In this document: positions 17,464 to 64,000 of the stretch, one piece after another
Position numbering within the stretch: position 1 is the first letter of the stretch
Layout: each line of letters starts with the position of its first letter
DNA from: Lytechinus pictus
Lineage: Eukaryota
Assembly (NCBI RefSeq): GCF_037042905.1
Contig: NC_087245.1
Coordinates: 8,124,001-8,188,000, forward strand
DNA: 64,000 nt
Direction of reading: 5' to 3'
Position numbers and translations under genes: made by a program
Notes under the pieces: generated by a model
The model's database searches: none
Told to the model about the DNA's origin: nothing
The model's input: only the letters and a program-made list of their open reading frames with translations

Positions 17464-41430
<23,967 letters not shown>

Positions 41431-48093: not shown

Positions 48094-48499
48094 CGTATAG
48101 TGAACTAGCGTTTTATAGATCGCGATTTAAAACTGTTTTTTAAGCAAAATTGAAAGTTTCATGGTTTCCATTATCAGGGAAATATAAATAACTTAAAGGG
48201 GAATCCAACCCTGGTATTTCTGTATCATTTTCAAATGAAGAGTTTGATTCTGATTAATTTGATACCAAATTTATCCGAATCGGTTAAGCGAAACTGGAGT
48301 TATTGAAAGATTACGAACCCCAAAGTAGGTCTTTCAATTATCGTCTGCTGCTCATGCAAGTCGCCATTTCTAGTAGACCCCCAGCGAAGGTATGACGTAT
48401 GGCACGGACATCTTCGATCGCGAGCGCTGGCCTGGAGAGATCCGTCGCGCGCTAGCAGACGCTATTTCTATAGGTTCAGTGTGCAATTTACCGAGCAAG

Positions 48500-51400
48500 A
48501 TGGTGTTTTGCCAGGCCTACGGCTGCAACAACAGAACTGGAAAAAAGTGTGGAGGGAAATCTTTCCACCGATTTCCCAATCCCAAAACTAGACCGGACGT
48601 TTTCAAGAAATGGGCAGCAGCAGTGAAAGTAGAGAAATTTCTGCTAAAAAGCTACAAATGGACTCCAAATGACCAGATATGTAGCGATCATTTTGTGGAG
48701 TCCGACTACGAAGTCGATCTTCGTGCAAAATTGATGGGGACCAAACCGCGGGTTCTTCTAAAAGAAGACGCTGTTCCGTCGGTATTTTCATTTTCATCTT
48801 CATCGGGACCTTCGACATCATCAAGAGATGAGCGATCAGCTCAAGCAAGTTGTAAAGAGGTATGTTTTTCCCGTCTTTATTCCAAAAAGTACATGTTTTG
48901 TAGCTTGTTTGTGAAAAGTGAGTGCCATGGCCACGTGAGTTTTGCTTTGATTGCGTGTGTACAAATACGTCTTGTGGCGTAGTCTCTGCACATGCAGACC
49001 GCTGTTTGTTTGTTGATGTGAATGTCTCGCGATAAAACATCTATTTGTGATTTGATTTCACTTGTAAATTATGATAGTAAAAAAGGGTTACTGATGACGA
49101 TGAAAAGATCATGTAGCTGCCCCGACTTCTTTATTCAAATTGGTATGTTTCTTTAGATCTAGACCGCGCTTTGCTTGCACTTTTTGCAGCCATCGATCTA
49201 TTCTGACGACCGTGGTGGTGTTCCCTTGGACTTGCCATTCCCCATGACTAGCAGCCGCAGCCTTAGCTGCTGCATGCCTCGAATGTTCAGTGCGCTGTGC
49301 TCTCCCCCGACAGTATATGGCCATGATTCAGGGGCGGATCTAGGATTTGTCAAAGGGGGGGGGGGTGGGAAAAACGACAAGGGAAAAAAGAGGATTGGAA
49401 AATTTGGGGGGATTCTGTTTTATACTGTTATTTTTAATAGCGTTTTTACATTACAAATTTTAATTGTGCCTCTCAAAGGGCGGGGGGGGGGGGGCACGGG
49501 AAAGCTGTGCCCCCCTGGATCTGCCAGTGCCATGATGTGTGTGAAAGTCACAGTCCTACTTTTTTATTGTTTTGAAATTCGAAGGCTGCTAATTTTGCTA
49601 ACACTAACGCTACTACGGTACATGATTTGTATGACCTTCTTTCTTGGTATCATGTTTCCATTGGATTGGGCAGGCTAGAGGCAGTGTTGGAGACAGACAG
49701 TGCGTGTGCAAGGTCCTGTTTATCATAATATAGGAAAACAAAAAGTTTGAAAATAGAGTCTATCAGTTTTGACTTTGTTCTTGACTGATCAATTTTCCAT
49801 TGTGAGTGCTGTAGCCCCTGAATTAATCCACTTTGTTTGCTAATGCAGTTTATTTACAGATTAGCTTATCCTGGACCTGGTAGTGGTAGCTAAAGATTTT
49901 TGGTCTTTTTCTTTGCTCTTTTATTTTTATTCAATCATAAAAAACTTAGACTTAATTCATTATCATCTAGTCTTTAACCAAACGGCAAACGCCTGTTATT
50001 TTATTTATTTATTATTTACTTTGGAAGGTGGTTGGACTTTTTACACTAATATTTCATGCTTCCCATTGATGAATGCTGCCTAGTGGCAATGTCTTGTAAA
50101 GTGTGTGAATTGTAAAAAGCATTTGGACTAAGTTTATTTGGACCTGTATGTGAAGTGTTTTCAGGAAAACAAAGAAGTTTAATATTGATTTATCTCATTT
50201 GAATAAAACTCCTTTATATCGGAGGCACTCATAAGACATTTGGTACATTCATACTAATTTAAAAACCAAGCAATGAAAACAGCATAAAAACATCAATCCT
50301 TTTATAGACAGGGGTGTTTTAAAAAGAATGCTGTTCAAACAAAAAAAAGGCCTACTAGTTTTGGCATTGTTCTTGACTGGCGAACTGTCCATTGTGAGGG
50401 CTGAGGCTCCTGAATTAATCCACTTTGCTGCTTATACACATGAGCTTACCTTGGTAATCTAGATTATGGGTCTTTTGCTTTGCTTTGCTTTTTCTTAGAT
50501 TTATTAACATCTTAAAATTTTAGTCTAAAAAAATCATTGTATGAGGGTGGAGATGGCAAGGTCATCAGAGTATTTTCCCTCATTTATTTTTCTGTCAATT
50601 TTTGATACATGGAACTAACCAACTATGGCATTCTTTAATACCTGTACCTGATTGAATCATTTACTGATATATTTATTTGCAGTATCTTCGAACTGTTCTT
50701 GGAGAACGTCCTAGTGATCAAGGCGGTAAAGGCACACCTAAGACTGATAATGAATCCAATCATCCATGTACATCAACTTCTGATGATGTAAGCAAGCTTT
50801 CAATTTTCTTCCAACACTAGTGACAGATACTCAGAGAAACTACTTTCTAAAATTGCAATTCTTTTTTTGCCCATCATGTATAAGCACTACACAAAGTTGT
50901 CCTACAAATCAAGTAAAGTTTGTCCTATAGATCTTTGTAAACTGATTGTTTGATTGTCATTTTACCGATAAAGAATCAGAATGTGAGCACTTGTCAATTA
51001 GAAAATATTATGAAGTTATGCATTTATGTTAATTAATTCTGGTATTGGGGTAATTGGAACAATTCTGCTTGTGCTTAATGGTTGCAAATCATTTAGACAT
51101 TGTGTTGAGTGTATATATGGACTGCATTGTTTGCCATGACTTTAAATCAAAGCACTGTATGTACTTTCAAAATTATAAAGTTCAAGTCCTTGTATAGAAA
51201 CAAAAAGTTTATATTAAATGGTTGGAACTTGGAAGCAAACCTTGTGTGCTACCATACAGCGCTGGTTAATGATAATAAAATATTTCAGGCTTGCTTGAAA
51301 TTATAGTCAATACAGTAGCACGTATGTGCTTTTCTAGGTATAGCTAACAGAGGAAACAACATTTAGGACCAAACTATAAATAGACCGGCATTTTGCAATC

Positions 51401-54400
51401 TTCAATTGCTTATTACTCTTTAATTTCCTGAAAAATTGTTTGATATATATATTTGAAATTCTTTATAATTTTTTTTCAATTCTGTGAAATTTTACTTTCT
51501 TTTATGAGGTCTATACATGTTTGTCATGTAAAAATATCTTGGTAGATCTTTATTTTTCATTTCATTAACCACCAGCGTATATCAAGGACATCAAGTGAAA
51601 TGATTTCATGTGTTATATTGTACTACAGCTTGTTTTAAAATAGGGCTCTAGTATACAAAGTCATATTAGAATGCAGTTTACAAGACAGAAGAGTAGTTTT
51701 GGGGAGAAATATGAAATTAGAAGGAAAAAAACAAATGAATTCATTTGTGGTTTCTCCGCACATTTTTTTAAAAAACAAACTTAACATTTTGACTTACTAG
51801 ATATTCATTCACGTGTTAGGTTGTGATGAAGTAAAATAATACTCTGTCCATTTTTTGTTTTGTTTTTCTATACCTTATTTCTTAAAACTATTTCGTCCTC
51901 ACTTGCATTTCATTGTCACAAAACAATCTCTTTTCAGAAGTGTCAATTTGATTATCATGTTGTATCATTGCAAATTCACTATTACAGTCGGTGTTACCAA
52001 TGGAAGGAATTGAATCTGGTGGAGATGCTCCAAATGAAGAGACAACACAAAGCAGTAGTCAGGTATGTTTTCATTTTCGTCTCACCTGAACGAAGTTTGC
52101 CAGAGGCCCAGTGATCACTTTTTCTGTTGGTCTGTTACAAAAATGTTAAAGTTTTTGTTCAACTTGCTCTTGTTTCTTTATTTTTGCATCAATTATATTC
52201 ATAGTTTGCTTAAATGATCATTCAGTAATTGTGTGCTCATGAGAATAATGGGTCAGGGTCAAAGGCCATCTAGGGGGTCAAAAGGTTAACTTTTGTTCAA
52301 CTGATCCTTTGGTATTACCATGGAGCTATTAAACACAGATATAATAACAGATATAATAGCTCTATGGTATTACCACATATGTGTTCAGGAGGAAGAGGAG
52401 GTCAAAGGTCATCTATGGTTTTAAAAATCTAGTTGCAAATTTTTTCATTGATCGTGAAATCAGGGGAGAGTCTTGGTTCACAAACCTATTTAATAATGCA
52501 TAATTGCTGTGCAAGTAGTATGTCTTTTTTAGATGCATATATCAGAAAACGATCCATATATGCCCAAGAAGGGCTGTGAAGAGGCCTCATCAAGCAGTTC
52601 TTGGCTACTCGAAATAATTGAAACGGGCTTGACCTAGGTCACTAGTCATATCAGTTCTTTTGTCGAAAGCCACTACCTACTGGTTATTTCCATGTAGAAT
52701 AACTGACTAGTAAAAAAGAAATAATTAAAAATGAGGTCACTTTCAAAAAATTCCTGTTGCCCCTTGTAGAATTTTTAGCTCAGTAATGTTCTCATCCGTG
52801 TGTCTTGACTTTTAATACCATAATAGTGATTGATAAATATTTTTTTGTTTTGTTTCTAAAACAGTCGTTTCTACCAATTGAGGAGACAGTTTCAGATGGA
52901 GATGTACAGCCGAAACCAGAGACTCCACAGAGTTACTATCAAGTAAGAAGATCTGTTAATTCAACTCTTGTTTAACTTAAATAGTTCTAACATAAAAGAT
53001 CCATGGGAATCTTAGGTAAAGTATAAAAAAAAGGCATGCAGAATAATTGCATTCTCCATCAATGCTTCAATAGGAATGGATGATGTTAAAGTTCACTCAT
53101 GGATTTCATTATCTGACATTGTAAACACTTTTTTCAGTGACTCATATCTGTACTGCAAAACTTATTAGAGTACCAGTAAAAACAAGTTTAAATAGTTGAG
53201 TGCCAAAATATGAAAACATATTGAAAAAATATCACCCGAGACATTTCTTTGTTTATCACTTCACAGGGATCAGCTACTGGATTGACTACAGGTACTGAGC
53301 CAACACCTAAAAGGAGGAAAGGAAGTCGCAAAAGGAAAAGGAGTTCATCTAAGAAGGTATATTTCCATAGTAAACCTTTTTCATCAGTTATACTCTGTAA
53401 AGGGGAATCCATTTTTTTGGCCATAAGATTTTCTGTGAGAAGAGAGAGAGAAAAAAGAATGAGGAAAGTTTATGGGAAAAAAAAAACAGACAAGCAATAG
53501 CGAGATCATGGCTGATTTTAATGTTAGTTTCAAACTTAATAAGAGTATTACTACTAGAAGTGGTGGGGACAACTTTCATATAGACCATGTGCTCAATTAT
53601 CAGGGATTTGTGTTTTTTTCCTAAGTATGGCTGAGTATAGAGGTAGCATATTGTCCAATGTCATGGAAAGATATAATTTTAAGCAAAAATTATTGGAGAA
53701 AATGTTTTAACCATTATATTTATTAGACTAATTAAAAGACTTTTTTGTTTCCCTACATCACTGTAACCTCATCAATGTGGCAAATTAAAAAAATCATAAC
53801 TATCATTGTTTGTCAATTATTTCAAAAACTTATTTAATTATCTAATGTTTCCATTTCTCCTAAAAACAACTTTCTTTATTTAGGCTGAAATTCCCTTTAT
53901 ATGTAATGTTTTGTTGATCTTAATATGAGCTTGGGATCCTCTATTCATTAAAGTCTTTGATAATCTATTTTAGAATCAACCATTATTATATAGGTGAGGT
54001 AGAATTGGACTTGACAGCTGGGCTAAAGCTGGGTTAATGATTAAGCACAAAGAACATTGCATCATAATGCAATATATACATCATACAAAAATGTATTATT
54101 TCATTCTTTTTTGCAAATTATTCAAATACCATACCAAGGTCTGTAGGTTGGAGGTTACCGGTAATTGAATTGAAACAAAAATTGTTTTTTTTTCTCTTAT
54201 GTGAGACTCCCTTGCTATACTTATTAAATTTGTTATCATTTGTTGGGACTTTTATTCTTGTAAAACCTAATTTCTTAATACCCCTCATGTTTTTATCCAG
54301 AGGCAGAAATGCGTTGCAACATCTAACGCAACTACACAGACACTGTCATCTGGTCCACAACCAATGGAGGAGAAGATGTGTCAATGTCCGGATGATTTTT

Positions 54401-56262
54401 CCCATGTACGAAAGGACCATACTTATGCAGAAAGCTACCCTCGCATTCTAAAACCGGCCTTTGTGATGGTAGAGGTAGCGGAAGAGTCCCAAGCTTCAGA
54501 TTATGGAGGTGACTCTAGTCAGTCAGATAGTACTTCCCCTCAGCCTATACCTGATCTTACTGGACAAGATGAGTTCATGGTAGATACTTCTTCAACTGTG
54601 CCTACACCTGGTGTAACCATGCCAGATGACCCATGTCCTTCACCTGTATCATCTCAACATTCAGATTCATCCTCATCTTCGACTACAAGCTCTGTACCAA
54701 CATCTCCTTCACGTGGTGGACAGTCGTCTGACTCGTATAAACCATCTGATGAGTCGGATTCATCATCTTCAGAGGAAGAAAGAGAGCCTGATGAAATGAG
54801 ATACTGCATGGGGAAGAAATATGTGGTCTTTGATGAACAACTTAATGATCTGTTTTATAGACTTAAGTGTAAATCTTGTTCTGATGGCCACATTGCAGAA
54901 CTGAAAAAGTATACTGTAGGTACCATGCTGGTTGTTAATGTACTATGTGTGTGTGGTTCTCTTGTATACAGGTGGCAATCTCAACCAACCATTGGCAGGC
55001 AACCAGTTGGGAATCTATTGCTTTCTGCCTCCATCATGTTCACAGGCAAGACATATGAAGACTTCAAAGTACTGGCGGATCTTTTTAACCTACAGTTCAT
55101 GTCAGACACCACCTTCTATGACATCCACAACAAGATCCTCCTTCCTGTCATCCACACATTCTATACACAAGACGCCCATGAAGAACATAAGAATCGACCA
55201 CTCTCTATCTGTGGTGATGGGAGATGCGATTCACCAGGATACAATGCAAAATATTGCACTTACACGTGTATTGACCTTCAGTCAAATAAAATAATGGGCA
55301 TGTCGCTAGTTCATGTTAGCGAAGCAACAAGTTCCGTTGCCATGGAGAAAGTAGGTTGTAGGCGGGTATTAGACTTTCTTCTAGCATCATTGGATGTCAG
55401 TGTGTTTGCTACTGATCGGCATGCAAGCATTGCCAAAATGATGCGTGAGGTATTCCCCCAAGTGTGCCATCAATATGACATTTGGCATGTCACAAAATCA
55501 ATAAAGAAGAAACTCATCGAAAAGGCAAAACAAAAGGACAACGAAGTCCTGTGGCCTTGGACAAGGTCTATCACAAATCACCTGTGGTGGTCTACAGAAA
55601 ACTGTGATGAAGACGAAGTCATGCTGCGGGAGATGATCCAGTCAGTAACACACCACATCACTGACATCCATTCCTGGAATTCAGCTGAAAAGTTCCATGA
55701 ATGCGAACACGAGGAATTGACTCCAGAGGAAACAGAAGAAACAAAGTGGCTGGAACCAGGGTCAAAACCTCATGAAGCTGTCCAGAGTATCGTCTTCAAT
55801 CAACGATTAATGAAGGACACAAAGCAGATGACGAAGGCCTGCCATACTGGTGCGATAGAGTCCTATCATTCATTGTATCTCAAGTACTGCCCGAAACGCA
55901 AACACTTCTTCTACCCTGCCATGTTGGCCAGAGCAGAACTGGCAGTTCTTGACCATAACGCTAATACTGGCAGAGAGCAGGCAACCGTGAAGAGAGAAAG
56001 AACTGGAACTGCAAAGAAAGGGGCACTACGCTTTCGGTATGTGTGGTCAAAGTCCACCAAAGAGTGGGTTCTGAAGCGCATCCCAGAGGACAAGAACTAT
56101 GCATACCTTTGGGATATGCTTGTTGCAGTTCTACAAGTCAAGGCTGGTAACTTTGACCTTAAACAGCCGCAGTATCCAATCCTTCCTCAGAACATTGCAC
56201 CAATTCCACGTCCACCTCCTGAAGAACTCATAGAGCGGGCTACATCACGATTCAGCCATTGA
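48500..56262 (+). CDS. THAP-domain DDE transposase (Kolobok type), 6 exons, ~889 aa
   Basis: Exons 48500-48859, 50683-50787, 51988-52062, 52865-52942, 53267-53356, 54301-56262; all GT-AG, all phase 0, no stops. Exon 1 is a THAP domain (MVFCQAYGC..SFHRFP..W..ICSDHF..LKEDAVPSVF). The last exon has CKSC/CVCG Zn-ribbon pairs and catalytic-type motifs ICGDGRCDSPG, FATDRHASI, HQYDIWH, HTGAIESYHS..KYCPKR. The small internal exons are less certain than exons 1 and 6. Confidence 0.88.
49329..49529. mobile_element. hAT-like MITE in transposase intron 1
   Basis: CAGGGGCGGATCTAGG ... CCTGGATCTGCCAGTG with TSD CCATGATT/CCATGATG. Confidence 0.7.
52319..52366. mobile_element. 48-bp minimal P-like MITE in transposase intron 3
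   Basis: CATGGAGCTATTA ... TAATAGCTCTATG with 7-bp TSD GTATTAC. Confidence 0.65.
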
Positions 56263-59200
56263 TATCATGGACTTCAGGATGATACAATAATGAAGTGTTT
56301 CCAGCTTTCTATCAACCTACTTTATTAGATGACAAATGACAGTCTTTCATTCTTTTGACTTCGTGAGGCGAGTGATCGTTTACACATTTGCATGCTATTT
56401 GCACGTATGTCAGTTGCACACGTATCGGTGGAATTATGTAATATAGACATTTGATGAATCATACCAAATGAAAATGATATTCATCAACGAAACTGTTACT
56501 ATAGCAATATTGTGTTTTCCTACATTGCAGGAAACAGAAAGTAATCAACAGCTCATTAAGAACTTGAATATGACAAGACATTTCTAGTCTCGCCTTCATC
56601 TCTAGTGTTAAAAAAATGAATATACTTTTTAATTATACTTGTATTGATGTAAACAAAGCTTGTTTTGTTTGCCTAAGAAAGTGTATGCATTTTTTTGATA
56701 AAATAGAACTTCACTTTATATTACTATGATGTATTGCAATATTGAGGTGAAAAGTTAAATATAGTGTCCTGCTGGGTCTCAAAAATTAAACCTTAAGCCA
56801 AATGTCAGAAGAGAGAGAGAAAGAAAAAAAACATACAGTAGGCTTTCATCTTGATCGTGTATATCATACATTCATCTGTTCTATGTGAAAATAAATGCGA
56901 GATGGTTGAATCTAGATTTTCCACATGTATGCATTTCTTGACATTTTTTGAAATTACAATATTCAGCAGAATATGGTGACATTTGAGGACCACTTCCTGA
57001 TCACATCTTTATGTGGTGGTAAGGAATAGGTGGAAAAAAATTAGATTTATTTTCTAGCAAATCTAAAGGTCAAGTACTTGTATTTGTGAATCTGTAAAAT
57101 ACCAACAATGTACCAACAAACACTGTTTGTAAATTGATGTAACAAGGCAATGGGTCATCCCAGATGTTTCATGCATATTTTTTTCTCACCAGCACTGCAT
57201 GACTTTTGGTAGCTTCTTTCCGTCTTTATGATAATTTTTTTAATCAGATGATAAACCACATTTTGTTTTCGGAGATTACATATACTCAAACACACGATTT
57301 CTTGCACAATTATTGCTTTGGCATTAATTTATGATTAAAAACAATTATCCTGGACTTTTCTATGCTGAAGAAAATTGAACAGCTAATTTCTTTGCAAAAC
57401 AAATTGAAATACATCAGAAATAAAATTGATTTCAAAGACTTGTTTTCTTCATGGAATTTAAAGCATCATTTAGGGAATTAAAGCAAAATTTGAATTATTC
57501 ATAAAGTAAGAATAATATATTGTTGGCTGATTACATCATCTGTGTGAACTGTCTTTTGACGACCAAGGTCTCATGGGGGAGGGGGTGTTGAATGTGCCTT
57601 AAGGGAAACCTCAAAGGCACATCATGACTGTTTTTACCCTTCTATCTTTTGGAATGGTAGAATGGGATCAGGTTTAAATCCTATAAAGTACTCATGATTT
57701 CTTTAGGGGCTAGAGAGGAAGAAGGTTATACATTTTTTTGTATATACATGATCACATATTGTAGATACGTTGAGGAACGATACTGATTTAGAGTCACAAG
57801 TTAAGATTGGTCTCCAAATGAAATTGTTTCTCATTGGAAGCAGTCGCTGGATTAAAGCACTTTCACATTTGTTAAATATTTTTTAGACTTGATTCTGAGA
57901 ATACACATGTTTAGTGTATAATTAAACAGTTTGTTTTGACTTATACCTTTGAGATATAAGTGCAAGCAGAGTGAAGATGTTAGTCATTCAATGTGTGTTG
58001 CTTATCAAATTTATTATTTGTTTGTATATAAAATATTTACATGTTTTATTGATAGGGAGGAGATATTTTAATGACATCTATTAGCATAACTGGTCATTAA
58101 TTTGATACCTGGTATTCGTTTTTTGATAAAAATCAGACTCACATTGTCTGAGCATTTGCTTTGTATGTATTCCCTGAAGATATAAATGTACATGTAAATG
58201 GTGGTTTTATAGGGGATGGGCTGTGAGGGTCACATGACTCATTATCTGACCTTAATTTTATCCGTCTTGGAATTATGTTTCAACATTTTTCTTTCTGTAG
58301 TTTCCAGATGACAGGCATTGATGCACTTCAAAATAGTGCATTCTATCTGAGGTTCAGAGTTCCATTGCAGCATATGAAATGATATGTAAACAACTTTGTG
58401 GATAAAAGCATTAAATTATATCTGTTAATTAATTAACTGAATTGACATTATACATTTGTGATCTGTCATGGCAATCTTCATACGAGGGGGGAGGGGGTAG
58501 TCTATAATCTAGGCGGCGTCTTCAGTATTTTTCTTTGCCTCTTATGTACCCCAGTCTGGTACTTTTTCTCAAAATGTCAGTAAGATGCAGAAGACTATGC
58601 AAAGCAGCTGCAATGTAGCCACCTTTGAAGCCACTGTGCACAGTCTTCCATGTCACAAATATTGCTCATGTTGGTGTAGTTGTAAATATATACCTGCAGC
58701 CGTCCGCCACCTACATTATAGGATATGTGGTGGGGGAGTGTTATTTCAGAGGGGAAAAGAGGTAGCAGCATACATACAAATACACACATGCAGAGAGAGG
58801 GGGGAAGGGCCATATAAATGGATAGAGAGCAGAGAGAAGTTTGTGAGATTGAGAGGAGAAAGCAGTGACGAAAGTGAGATGAAAAGTGTGGTTTGATAGG
58901 GGAAAAATATTAATTTTTGAATAGTCTTTGTATACATCAACCTTTGATAAGTAGACAAAAACAAGCTTTTTCATCATCAGCTCTCCATAACATCTTGTAA
59001 TAAGGAAGCTTGTATGGAAAAGAAAAAATAACTGAATGTTTGAGATTAATTAGGCAAGTAGTCATGAACACATGAATATTGAAATCACCTATGATTTGGA
59101 GACACCCTCCCCCTTCCCCCTATTGGCAAGCAACCAAGAATTGTGATGTCACAGAAGCCTATTTGTACAGTGAAATATACACCAAGGCATCTGTTTCTGT

Positions 59201-59461
59201 TCATTCTAATGATACAACAAACTTTTGGTTGTATGTTATATGAAAATTCCATAACATCTTTTCATGGAAAAAGAAGAAGTCATGTTCTATGGATAGTCTT
59301 TTTAAGAATTAGAATTTAGAAAATGTGAGTAGAAAAGAAATTGGGAGTGACAAGTAGATAATGTACATGTTGGTCGAAATGTAAATGGGAGGATGTCCAC
59401 ATAAGTTATCTCAATATTCAAGTGCCTATAACTTTCATCGTATTTGTTTAATTTTGTTTAA

Positions 59462-59950
59462 AGGGCAAGTCCACCCCAACAAAAACTTGATTTGAATAAA
59501 AAGAAAAATTCAACAAGCATAACACTGAAAAATTCATCAAAATCGGATGTAAAATAAGACAGTTGTGACATTTAAACTTTCACTTCATTTCACAAAACAG
59601 TTATATGCACATCTCGGGTCAGTATGCAAATGAGGGAACTGATGACATCACTCACTCACTATTTTGTATTTTATTACATGAAATATGAAATATTTTGATT
59701 TTCTCGTCATTGTCATGTGAAATGAAGTTTCATTCCTCCCTGAACACGTGTAATTCCATATTTTAACATTTTGTGGTTTAATTCAAAAATTTAAATATTG
59801 TATAATTCAAACAATAAAAAACAAAAGAAATGGTGAGTGAGTGACATCGTCGACTCTCATTTGGATGTAACTGGCTTGTTCATATAACTATTTTGATAAA
59901 AATAAGCGAAACTTTGAAATGTCATAACTTTCTTATTTTACATCCTATCT
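59462..59950. mobile_element. Kolobok-type MITE (right-truncated) inside the autonomous Kolobok
   Basis: TTAA|AGGGCAAGTCCACCCCAACAAAAACTTGATTTGAATAAA..CATCAAAATCGGATG; same family as 15075-15611. Confidence 0.75.
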
Positions 59951-60119
59951 TTAATTGATTTGCTTCTTTTTTTGTGTGTTTTTAAAGATTCCATTCTCCT
60001 TAATGTCAAATTTGAAATTTTAGTCCAAAGTTGGGATTTGACTTTGGCAGATTCGCTTGTACTCCTTTCTCTCATGTTCTTACATGTATCACTCTTATTC
60101 CATACCATCAATTCTCCTT

Positions 60120-60340
60120 TCATGTCCATCCCTCATTGTGCTACCCTTTTCTACACTTTCCTCCCAGCCCCCCCCCCCTAGTCTTTACTTCACATCCATC
60201 CCTCATTGTTCTTCCCCTTTCCACACTCTTTCATACATCTTTCCTCCCCCTCTCTTTACTTCATATTCATCCCTCATTGTTCTAGCCCTTTCTACACTCT
60301 GTAATATCTCTTTCCTCCCCCTCTCTTTACTTCTGTCTCC
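60120..60340. repeat. Pyrimidine-rich tandem repeat, ~70-bp unit x3
   Basis: CATCCCTCATTGT..CCCTTT.TACACT recurs at ~60128, ~60197 and ~60268. Confidence 0.7.
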
Positions 60341-61847
60341 CTCCAGCTACATGTATCTCATTAATGTTCATCTCCTACTCCCTCTCATTCGTAAAAGATA
60401 TCCACGACATAGGATAAGGGAAAAGAGAACATGGAATGAGGTATATAAAGGCAAGGCAGTCAATTTGTGCTCAGTAGACTCTCATTCCATAATCTTCATG
60501 TCTATATCATTAACACTACATACATGTATAGTTTGTATACATGACACTTCACACCATTGATATCATGTTTGGATTGAGAATCAGATTTAATATTCACTAT
60601 TTTCTTATAACTGAAAACCAATACAATACATGTAGGTACATGTACAAGTGAAATCATATAAAATGAGATATAAGAATTTCTCATCAGGGAGCTACATGTA
60701 ATATACAGTAATCATCAATTGCAGTTATTTAAGATAGGACCAGACATGAGAATTGTGCAATAAAAAAATAAAAAAATCAGAATCAGGAAAATTTCTGTGA
60801 CTCAATCTTTACTGCAAAACCCATGATTAAACTAAAGAAACAAACCAAAATGAAAATACAGCAACTGTAAATTAAATATAACAGTGGTTATTTAAATGTA
60901 CACCTCAAGCTTGAGAAAGTCCAGCATTATCAAAGGAAAAATGCCTTGTTGGTACTGTTTAGAAAAGTTGCCTCATAGTTTCACTTTTTACAAATAATTT
61001 CATACCTTAAAATGTAAAGCCATACTTAATATATCATACTTTTTTTAAAGCATGTTGTTCTTTGAATCTAATAAATTAACCGATTGACAGATAAGTGAAG
61101 GATGAACAGTGTTATTACTTCTGTACAAGTCTCATAGATAGATTTATCTCCACACTCGTATTATCTTCAACACTAATTCATGAGTCTGTTCATGTATAAG
61201 ATCATTTATTTTCCAATTAAAATCACTAATGTTTATATTTCATTACAATCACAGGTATGATTTGAAACTTGAAAGTACGCTTCTATATATAAAAAAAAAA
61301 TCTCTTCACGGGTTATACATGTAAGCAATCTTCTGTAATCTGAAAAACAGACAGGCAACATGTGAATGCGACATACATAAATCATAAAATAACATTACTT
61401 CAAAGTTCAATGTCGATGCTTATACATGTACTTAGTAAATATTAACAGTGTAAACAAATTACAGACACATGTGATGGAACCCAGTGTCTCATTTTGTTCT
61501 ACAAAATTTGTACCACGTAGTAGCAGATAGCATTCTTTCAAGTAAAAAGTGAAACAAAACACTAGAAAGTAATAAATATCTACAAATATCCATATTGAAA
61601 GAAAGTGCATGTTTGAACACAGACAGAAATTCTTCACATAAAATATCATTTCTAATGCATTGTATACATGCAGGTACCACCTGAGAAGGGGTGTTTCACA
61701 AAAATGTAAGTCTCAACTTAGGGTTGTACCAAAGTGCACAGTCGCATGTGTAAATAAAGAAATCATTGCATCGATAAAGGAAAAAAAAAATCATGCTACG
61801 GTAAGAGAATATCATGCTACTGTACGTATACGAGTCCATCCACTTTT

Positions 61848-63339
61848 TCAAATCAGAAATTCTTCAGGGACAGGAATATCATCTCCATCATCTCCCTCCT
61901 TGAATCCGATGTAATTTCCATCTGGTTCAGGGAAAGCCTCGCGGATCCGTGTGACAGCACAGGCAGGAATCACCCGACGGACGCCCTTTCCCAGGTAGCC
62001 ATGGACCCAGTAGGTAAATAGCCTGTAGGCTGCGTATCTGTAGGAACTGGAAAAAAGGGGAAGAAAATCATTACTGACATTGATAATGAATTTTAACATC
62101 ACATAACGCAAATGTTAGAAAACACGGTATTGACTTTGCAGTTGTGGGTAGATTACCGTAATCCTCCTAATTATTACATGCATCAATAGCAAGGTAGTAT
62201 TAATTTCTGATGACATATTACATGTACATGTCCCCGGGGGGGGGGGGGGGGTAGGGCCACTTCCATTGACGAGTGGATACCATGCGGGGCCTTGGGTATT
62301 TCCATTAAAATGTCTGAAAATGCACCCCTTGCACCTGTTGGAAACAAAACGATACTCTTTCCAGTCTTGGCAAGTTCCCTGAATTGACCCCCTTAACAAG
62401 TACAGCAATATTTCTATTGTTATTTCACGGCTGTCGGCCTTCGGTTTTACCTTCTCCAACATCATTGGGCTTAATACAGCCCCAACTCTCACATCTCGCT
62501 CAAATCGTATTCTAAACACATACTGTAGTGTTGACTCTCGGTGCAAAAGTACATGATTACATCCTTACATTATTTTTACTAAAAAACTAAGTCTTAAGTT
62601 TTTACACCCTTCCAAATTTGACCCTAACACGAAGCTTTTATAGCAAAAAATAGATACCCTTTTTATAATTTTATGTTTTCGACACCCTTACCAAGCTACG
62701 TACATAACGTGCCCTATCTTGAAAAAGACTTCCTTTTCACATATTTTTGGGGTCGTATCTACTAATCAATGTAGGCCTACATGTAACAAGTGCCCCCCCC
62801 CCCCCCTCGGGTTACATGTATAAAAAATTTTTTTTTTAATGGGTGGGTTCACGTCTGAATGTGTCCCACGTCTTGGCTAGTAGAACATGTATTTTATTGG
62901 AAAGTGGCAAGGTCGCAAAGTCAAAGATATTGTCATTTCATTTCACTTACATGTTATCAAGCACTTCAGGCAAGTTCCTTCGATGCCCTCTTGAATCAAG
63001 TCTGGCGACAAGGGCTGTCCGCAAAACCACCCTCTCCATGCATACTTTCTGAAAGTCCTCGTGTCTCACAATGCAAGTTATCCTTGCATCTAGAAACCGA
63101 TCACAGTTGTCCACTTCATGGCAACAGCGACACTGAATCACTGACGGCATGGGCACACAGCTCCCACACTCACACCAGTCGTTGTTGCCCATTCTATTCG
63201 GAGCTGGTACGGGGTCAGGTCCGGGTGGCGGCTGCACCGGTGGAGCAGCTGCTGCGGCGGCCGCTCGGGCTCGTCGACGAACCATCAGTTCTTCCTCGGT
63301 GTACTTTGGCTGGAAATCGTAGCCACGAGGCCCTTCCAT
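61848..63339 (-). CDS. Stand-alone P2X7 cytoplasmic-ballast-like Cys-rich protein (KolX-type accessory protein), 2 exons, 195 aa
   Basis: Exon 63339-62951 (MEGPRGYDFQP...WCECGSCVPM..CRCCHE..ITCI..HEDFQKVC; GTAAGT donor, phase 2) plus exon 62046-61848 (ttccAG acceptor; SYRYAAYRLFTYWVHGYLGKGVRRVIPACAVTRIREAFPEPDGNYIGFKE). Matches the P2X7 C-terminal pattern WCxCGxC..CC..C..RHCAYR..W..LPSCC..IR.EFP..G.Y.GFK. No transmembrane or ectodomain exons found. Confidence 0.88.
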
Positions 63340-64000
63340 GAGCTTCAATTTCAAGATCACGAAATTAAAACAAGAGTCGAAAACCCGCGATGACGAAAGA
63401 TTTACTCGTAAATGATCAAATAAGTAAATATTTTTTAAAAAAATGAAAGTTCCGAGTGCAATCGAGTACGGTATAGCGTTGAAGACTACGAGCGACAAAG
63501 TGATAAAGCCGTTTCGCGTTTTTCTGAGTGGCCAATCTGAGAATAATCATTCTTATTTTTTTGTTTTTTCATTTTTCTCTTTGATATTGTATTAAAAAAA
63601 ATTTAAAAAATATTAAATGTGTTTAATAAATATTTAAATGCACCTGGCAATTTTTTTTTTTTTTTTGGACAAAAAATACATGTATCAATCATCATGATGG
63701 TGTTCATTTATTGTCCAATGAGAAGACGTCTTTACGTAGTCCGGGCCATACGTCACGAATATCGCTGAGAAGTCAAACAATGGCGGCTTCCATGGGTGAG
63801 AAAAATTGATTCAATTAAATGCAATTTTCTCTGCAATTTGGAATCGGGGAGACATGAACGACATGTCATTAGAAAGGTCAAAGATAGGCCTTTCTTATGA
63901 CGTCGTTTTTTCCCTGCCCTGGATTCCCCTTTAAGTAATTGCATACCTTGGGCCGGAGTTATTGAAAAAAATCCTCTGGATGATTGAGAAATCTGTCATC

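Follow-up and report, generated by a model that had tools for sequence, protein, structure and literature searches.

Kolobok elements are DNA transposons marked by duplications of a TTAA target and by 5'-RR/YY-3' termini, and among them the Kol0 lineage encodes two proteins, a transposase and a second one named KolX (Kojima & Bao 2022, PMC9587614). KolX is clearly similar to residues 476–595 of human P2X7, that is, to the ballast, with its two zinc ions and seven cysteines; according to the same paper the P2X7 gene was born by fusion of a P2X4-like gene with KolX, and zebrafish nanor is another domesticated KolX. Kol0 is listed there in vertebrates, annelids, cnidarians and sponges, echinoderms being named in the accessible part of the article for KolobokP only (its Table S1 has KolobokP-1_LyPi, from the sea urchin Lytechinus pictus). 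Free-standing ballast proteins with partial conservation of the GDP site have also been described across Metazoa, including sea urchin (Rump et al. 2020, PMC7016195). Here we describe a stretch of 64,000 nucleotides from L. pictus (RefSeq assembly GCF_037042905.1, contig NC_087245.1, positions 8,124,001 to 8,188,000 of the forward strand; henceforth the window, with positions counted from its first letter), in which a short minus-strand gene lies at 61848–63339 inside a complete Kolobok element at 48197–63930. This gene is very probably KolX, the second, accessory gene of a Kol0-lineage cut-and-paste transposon; that degree of confidence covers the identity of gene and element alone, apart from mechanism.

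The gene had been singled out in an original prediction, drawn from the letters and a program-made list of open reading frames, as a transposon-borne, free-standing ballast domain. Every motif quoted there could be located in the minus-strand frames of that list: WCECGSC (aa 55–61), CRCC (aa 70–73) and ITCI (aa 87–90) in the frame 63339..62950, and RYAAYR (aa 133–138), IPAC (aa 156–159) and RIREAFPEPDGNYIGFK (aa 163–179) in the frame ending at 61848. Read from the DNA, a donor GTAAGT at 62950 and an acceptor AG at 62048–62047 place exon 1 at 63339..62951 and exon 2 at 62046..61848. The resulting coding length is 588 nt (195 codons plus stop), and 61848–63339 is the exact span from stop codon to start codon. 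The parts of the gene are:

62951–63339, minus strand: KolX exon 1, aa 1–129 plus two bases of codon 130, with C56, C58, C61, C72, C73 and C89
61848–62046, minus strand: KolX exon 2, aa 130–195 including the stop, with R133, Y137, C159 and R165; matches P2RX7_C by itself (E 6.3e-11)
62047–62950, minus strand: KolX intron, 904 nt, GT..AG, phase 2, with an unrelated high-copy repeat inside
63340–63919, minus strand: KolX 5' region from the ATG to the right terminus, untranslated leader and presumed promoter

The joint 62046|62951 was recovered from RNA-seq, skipping 904 nt with ends CT..AC, equivalent to GT..AG on the minus strand. It is present in three of the four RNA runs (4 reads with 4 starts in X23, 14 reads with 10 starts in X24, one contig in X1); the fourth, X2, has zero depth on the KolX exons. 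The spliced X1 contig (record 7) is colinear with the window from 63934 into exon 1, skipping a low-complexity stretch at 63611–63678. In the RNA runs aligned, no joint leads from KolX to any other exon, upstream P2X channel exons included; its own intron provides the sole joint, as expected of the free-standing soluble protein first proposed. The intron position is also conserved in other lineages of the genome, where the protein is split at aa 130/131. The KolX family is transcribed and correctly spliced. The protein database holds an identical 195-aa gene model (P0001) under the name "P2X purinoceptor 7-like", which is misleading given the gene's own ATG and a joint confined to the internal intron.

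Within that intron, window positions 62232–62383 reach an RNA depth of 100–160 in the raw runs, compared with 0–7 on the exons, and the summed contig depth is far higher. Many of these reads continue into unlike sequence; the stretch is a high-copy interspersed repeat expressed elsewhere and lies outside the KolX gene product.

The predicted protein matches the Pfam family P2RX7_C (PF20478) at E 1.2e-17 (64.9 bits, gathering threshold 23.5) over profile positions 71–192 of 192, and its residues 47–180 match residues 468–593 of a human P2X7 chain (9e3m) at E 3.9e-12 in HMMER. A HMMER scan of 1.84 billion representative proteins returned 2692 relatives at E <= 0.001, of which 83, picked for near-full coverage and a length of at most about 250 aa, were aligned; a word-index protein search with exon 1 had found three proteins only, and the full scan was needed for the alignment. 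An AlphaFold2 model built on the 83-sequence alignment (predicted local distance difference test, pLDDT, 91.8; predicted template modelling score, pTM, 0.81) was compared with the PDB using Foldseek. The 14 matches at E <= 0.001 all fall on human, mouse or rat P2X7 chains; the best has a root-mean-square deviation (rmsd) of 2.8 Å over 134 columns at 30% identity, and the first hit outside P2X7 comes at E 2.7. As modelled, KolX has the fold of the P2X7 cytoplasmic ballast. The 46 N-terminal residues are KolX's own, with a confidently modelled helix at 15–31. KolX is not a P2X7 receptor, since the ballast stands here without a P2X channel body, in 195 aa and behind its own ATG.

The cysteines C56, C58, C61, C72, C73, C89 and C159 are each found in 81 to 83 of the 83 aligned relatives, and all seven are present in the eight genomic KolX loci (8/8), bearing out the claim that none had been lost. 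The remaining cysteines are less conserved: C100 in 60, C70 in 42 and C79 in only 9 of the 83. In sequence, the conserved seven fit the ligands of the dinuclear zinc site of P2X7 and KolX (the seven-cysteine statement being that of Kojima & Bao 2022, PMC9587614). The HMMER pairwise alignment puts C79 and D80 on C498 and C499 of P2X7; given how rarely C79 occurs in the family alignment, we rejected this placement, and C72 and C73 would be the equivalents of C498 and C499.

The borders of the transposon were fixed by a second copy. The window aligns with C16:1286476-1302894 at 97–99% identity over 48181–63934 and nothing beyond. TTAA stands on either side of both full copies, whose outer flanks are unrelated, and also in the four short derivatives examined (4/4). 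Both copies have the termini AGGGGAATCCA...TGGATTCCCCT (5'-AG...CT-3'), and so the 5'-RR ... YY-3' ends and short inverted repeats of Kol0. The placement of the gene inside a transposon is in this way substantiated. The features of the element are:

48193–48196: left TTAA target-site duplication (TSD), directly abutting the element end in the window copy and in the C16 copy
48197–63930: complete Kolobok (Kol0-type) DNA transposon, 15,734 bp, from the two-copy comparison
48197–48207, plus strand: left terminal inverted repeat (TIR), 11 nt, perfect
63920–63930, minus strand: right TIR, from the two-copy comparison
63931–63934: right TTAA TSD, from the two-copy comparison
48500–48787, plus strand: predicted first coding exon of the transposase, THAP zinc finger (ATG at 48500; frame open over 48377–48979; Pfam THAP E 1.3e-14)
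54271–56262, plus strand: predicted large last exon of the transposase, DDE core, a 663-codon open frame

As originally described, Kolobok transposases carry a THAP DNA-binding domain at their N-terminus. Such a domain is encoded here by the exon from 48500, and its join to the core is predicted from gene models of sister lineages, P0155 (872 aa) and P0162 (1005 aa), which align to the window from 48500 and connect a THAP exon, small linker exons and a core exon; on their pattern the window transposase would be the THAP exon joined to the DDE core. Across 60 relatives 33 columns are invariant; the core frame retains every one, including D316 (GDGRCDSPG), D382 (ATDRH) and E530, and shares the motifs GDGRCDSPG..AKYC.YT and TDRH with Kolobok_1_BF1p in the published alignment (PMC9587614, Data S5). 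The THAP-bearing, Kolobok-type transposase named in the original prediction was accordingly recognised. The second gene typical of Kol0 is there too, as the convergent two-exon KolX inside the element borders. A search of the element ends for subterminal repeat arrays gave only AT-rich chance pairs. To judge from its sequence, the element is intact and was probably active recently.

KolX and the transposase travel together. In all eight loci fetched, representing seven divergent lineages, the order is THAP (+), transposase (+), KolX exon 2 (−), exon 1 (−), with protein identities across the eight of 26–100% for THAP, 30–100% for the transposase and 29–100% for KolX; against the divergent lineages only, the transposase is 30–56% and KolX 29–68% identical. 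Genome-wide, a KolX exon 2 lies within 15 kb of 17 of the 33 clusters of transposase hits, in each case convergent and at a distance of 5.6–8.8 kb, where about 0.05 would be expected by chance. The KolX and transposase genes have been passed on together in at least seven divergent lineages of this genome. In tblastx comparisons no other collinear conserved block was detected, except for one short subterminal stretch near the right end shared with lineage B. Further conserved genes in the 5-kb spacers were considered and rejected; the tblastx hits at 59.5–60.0 kb are an unrelated interspersed repeat and are not collinear.

The same repeat occupies window positions 59496–59970, in an element spacer, and occurs in L013 just outside the element (window-equivalent 65585–66229), and in other Kolobok copies it sits at non-collinear places. 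The genome also holds shortened relatives of the element. One of them, a non-autonomous Kolobok derivative, is about 1.07 kb long; it has 18-nt termini AGGGGTGGTCCAGGCCAG next to TTAA duplications and is represented by copies that are 96–97% alike (L031:4696-5764, L032:4179-5232, L033:4463-5520 and L034:4755-5814). It consists of a THAP-exon fragment abutting an opposite-strand fragment of the KolX N-terminus (aa 1–67), an internal deletion of a two-gene element. Among the genome matches to KolX exon 1, 39 of 77 are of this type, covering 1–67/68 only, and the four examined all show the derivative structure. At L033:5521-5545 the right flank past the TTAA resembles a terminus of the window's Kolobok family (AGGAGAATCCAACCC), which suggests that one Kolobok inserted at the TTAA bordering another. 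Elsewhere, tandem arrays of seven to nine partial transposase pieces repeat the same 80–130 residues (C1:38667530-38684214, C5:46617166-46623636 and C9:12068375-12073136); these are satellite-like amplifications of a transposase fragment.

The original prediction had also seen a partly conserved guanine-nucleotide pocket. In rat P2X7, GDP is contacted by R546, H547, R574, R578 and K583 (Rump et al. 2020, PMC7016195). Starting from that list, we mapped the residues through the HMMER alignment of KolX with P2X7:

rat R546: R133 in KolX; R in all 83 aligned relatives
rat H547: Y134 in KolX; variable (Y 28, F 13, K 12, L 11 and H 11 of 83)
rat R574: V161 in KolX; V in 75 of 83, R never among the residues seen
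rat R578: R165 in KolX; R in 79 of 83
rat K583: E170 in KolX; E, D or S in relatives

Two of the five contacts are thus kept, the equivalents of R546 and R578, and KolX does not have the full guanosine-nucleotide site of rat P2X7. Next to them Y137, the equivalent of rat Y550, is invariant (83/83), and the F581-P582 and Y588-x-G-F motifs of P2X7 are retained as well; R133, Y137 and V161 are kept in all eight genomic loci, with no stops in the matched parts. Partial conservation therefore stood for the two arginines and the tyrosine and failed at the histidine (H547 to Y), at R574 (to V) and at K583 (to E). Such a count lowers the chance that KolX binds GDP as rat P2X7 does, although the pocket, as read from its residues, may still hold a nucleotide or another anion. 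No GTP-binding domain, or anything similar, was found in either KolX or the transposase.

A co-fold of transposase residues 170–663 with KolX, the interaction check suggested at the outset, scored 0.56 (runs of 0.55, 0.56 and 0.57); of three controls, the best reached 0.00. The runs share at least 91% of their contacts, and partner pLDDT is at least 68. The part of the outcome in favour is this separation from the controls; the qualifying part is the tool's own verdict, "weak support". Among solved complexes 51 of 78 attain the mark, among mismatched pairs 2 of 108; passes at 0.60 or less include only 5 of the 78 solved complexes but all 4 passing mismatches (of 180). The calculation was made without the supplied alignments, and its output comes without an interface or contact list. 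Two genes co-inherited in one mobile element do supply a fair prior, and with it the chance of a physical complex rises to a little under even.

Several observations weigh against this reading of gene and element. The co-folding tool itself counts a pass of this kind as likelier to be wrong than right, except where the guess had been probable from the start. Of the transposase clusters, 16 of 33 have no KolX nearby (mostly short pieces, tandem arrays of pieces, and frames with stops), and 27 of 44 clusters of KolX exon 2 lack a nearby transposase, which means that ballast genes also exist outside elements. In the C16 copy the frame of the core exon is broken around codon 85, whereas that of the window copy stays open over its whole length. 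Kolobok is not represented by a model in Pfam, the transposase reaches the MULE family only at E 7.8e-4, below the cut-off, and the Mutator-like PF20700 is slightly above its cut-off in two relatives of the transposase; membership in Kolobok thus rests on TSDs, termini, motifs and gene content. Finally, the RNA reads depart from the window copy at 15 listed differences, only one of which the C16 copy carries, and on this count the KolX transcripts seen belong to another copy or allele of the family and not demonstrably to the window copy. The exon 1 variants among them (n = 14, possibly mixed from several copies) comprise six amino-acid changes and eight silent ones, with none at a cysteine; this tally stands in for a ratio of nonsynonymous to synonymous rates (dN/dS), since synonymous sites are saturated between lineages at about 50% protein identity.

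Taking these points into account, the element at 48197..63930 duplicates TTAA on insertion and carries two convergent genes: on the plus strand a predicted multi-exon gene for the THAP and DDE transposase, on the minus strand KolX with its two exons. KolX would serve the transposon rather than the host. The opposite case, in which KolX is a host ballast gene carried as a passenger, or its two exons close a host receptor gene (a P2X channel, for instance) at the 3' end, would find some footing in the KolX clusters that have no transposase and in ballast exons that form receptor tails in this same genome (five genes with immunoglobulin (Ig) domains, a transmembrane segment (TM) and a ballast, on C8). 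We regard it as very improbable: gene order and orientation are identical in all eight loci from seven lineages whose non-coding DNA can no longer be aligned, the gene has its own ATG and a single internal joint, the spliced contig is colinear from exon 1 to the element end, the second copy sits in different flanking DNA, and the two-gene Kol0 structure recurs across animal phyla (PMC9587614). As to what KolX does for the element, the likeliest role, though with somewhat less than an even chance, would be that of a subunit or regulator with a zinc cluster, docking on the core of the transposase. Co-inheritance indicates a benefit to the element and leaves the mode of action free, so KolX might instead help other than as a transposase cofactor, by dampening transposition (copy-number control), by binding subterminal DNA, or through a host silencing or repair pathway. 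Other Kolobok lineages carry different accessory genes, for example nucleases and helicases (PMC9587614), and ballasts fused to nuclear regulator modules (KRAB in frogs, THAP in a pipefish) would fit an interaction module linked to chromatin or DNA. Those fusions are gene-model predictions, however, the scan for Pfam-type domains detected no DNA-binding family in KolX, the element ends lack subterminal repeat arrays, and the sole interaction test was a weak pass for the transposase; we consider such a role a serious minority possibility, on the unlikely side.

The original prediction had offered a more specific function, namely that KolX, binding zinc as well as GDP/GTP, would act in trans as a guanine-nucleotide sensor for the THAP transposase. 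In its favour, KolX retains the ballast fold, it is inherited together with the transposase, the co-fold passed weakly, and R133, Y137 and R165 may form a conserved anion or nucleotide pocket; a similarly cautious view of invertebrate ballast proteins is taken by Rump et al. 2020 (PMC7016195). Set against this are the three rat GDP contacts lost at Y134, V161 and E170 and the main text of Kojima & Bao (PMC9587614), whose accessible part uses none of the terms GTP, GDP and THAP. No statement of a Zn/GDP-GTP cofactor acting in trans was found in the literature searched, which did not extend to subscription journals. We hold this function to be unlikely. The P-element transposase, also THAP-bearing and cut-and-paste, depends on GTP for its activity by way of an internal domain; that domain belongs to the transposase itself, so the likeness to KolX is one of function, a resemblance to the ballast in sequence or fold having been neither seen nor looked for, and as KolX and the P element share no GTP-binding domain the analogy carries no weight. 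Judged for itself, the binding of an anionic ligand, possibly a guanine nucleotide, by the invariant R133/Y137/R165 pocket is a modest possibility at best, suggested by its residue conservation. The widest form of the docking proposal would make KolX a portable ligand-gated module that, bound to the DDE core, makes transposition responsive to zinc as well as to either a guanine nucleotide or another anionic metabolite held in that pocket, and that host genes have captured repeatedly; the captures would be P2X7 in vertebrates, the Ig-TM receptors in sea urchin and the KRAB and THAP fusions in frogs and fish. Taken whole, this is rather improbable.

The receptor genes lie outside the window, at C8:5340909-5607234, as five tandem plus-strand genes with exons for a V-set domain, a C2-set domain, a transmembrane segment and ballast exons 1 and 2, the ballast being split at the KolX intron position. 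One of the predicted proteins (P0054, 491 aa) begins with a signal-like stretch, followed by V-set and C2-set domains, by a hydrophobic segment at about 269–298 and by a cytoplasmic ballast in which the seven cysteines are present. The exon make-up of these genes suggests that a family of membrane receptors took up a ballast of the KolX type independently of P2X7. Invertebrate ballast proteins have been described without transmembrane regions (Rump et al. 2020, PMC7016195), and no report of Ig-TM-ballast receptor genes was found in the literature searched. Other gene models combine a KRAB box with a C-terminal ballast (P0116, P0137 and P0094, from frogs) or THAP with a C-terminal ballast (P0104, from a pipefish), a hint that the ballast module also works with nuclear regulators.

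Elsewhere in the window, a 322-codon minus-strand frame at 1694–2662 matches Pfam Sulfotransfer_2 at E 3.4e-54 (carbohydrate sulfotransferase) and is an ordinary host gene exon. A possible gene at 36524–37019 was rejected as a long TA-rich microsatellite that reads YIYIYI in two frames.

Intact, with both genes, a recent sister copy and a transcribed family, the element offers an experimental handle on the function of KolX and of the P2X7 ballast; should KolX prove to be a portable module, the transcribed family would be a ready system for studying the role of the ballast in P2X7. The KolX observation itself and the proposed origin of the P2X7 tail by domestication of a transposon gene, which the original prediction also voiced, are already known (Kojima & Bao 2022, Rump et al. 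2020), the domestication having been stated by Kojima & Bao (PMC9587614).

Compared with described systems, the KolX of this window does not differ in kind from published Kol0 KolX, likewise the second gene of a two-gene Kolobok with TTAA TSDs, 5'-RR..YY-3' termini and seven cysteines (PMC9587614), whereas in the KolX-like proteins described from a few piggyBac families most of the seven are missing (PMC9587614, Data S6). The ballast of vertebrate P2X7 (PF20478; 6u9v/6u9w, 9e3m) matches it in fold with an rmsd of 2.6–2.8 Å over 134 columns at 26–31% identity; there the domain is the tail of an ion channel, whereas KolX is free-standing and soluble and is encoded on a transposon. Invertebrate ZCD/ballast-like proteins and nanor (PMC7016195) are likewise short and domain-only, with all the zinc cysteines and, of the GDP contacts, only R546 and R578 widely kept. 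Two recurrent neighbour markers, from sponges to sea urchin, were read in that paper as ancestral synteny, and 'transpos' does not occur in its accessible text; in the window the adjoining sequences encode the THAP and DDE portions of a transposase and lie with KolX in one mobile element. The element belongs, with nothing unusual about it, to a transposon lineage already described; what sets it apart from published Kol0 is its host, a sea urchin, together with the 15.7-kb length of the family and its long introns and spacers.

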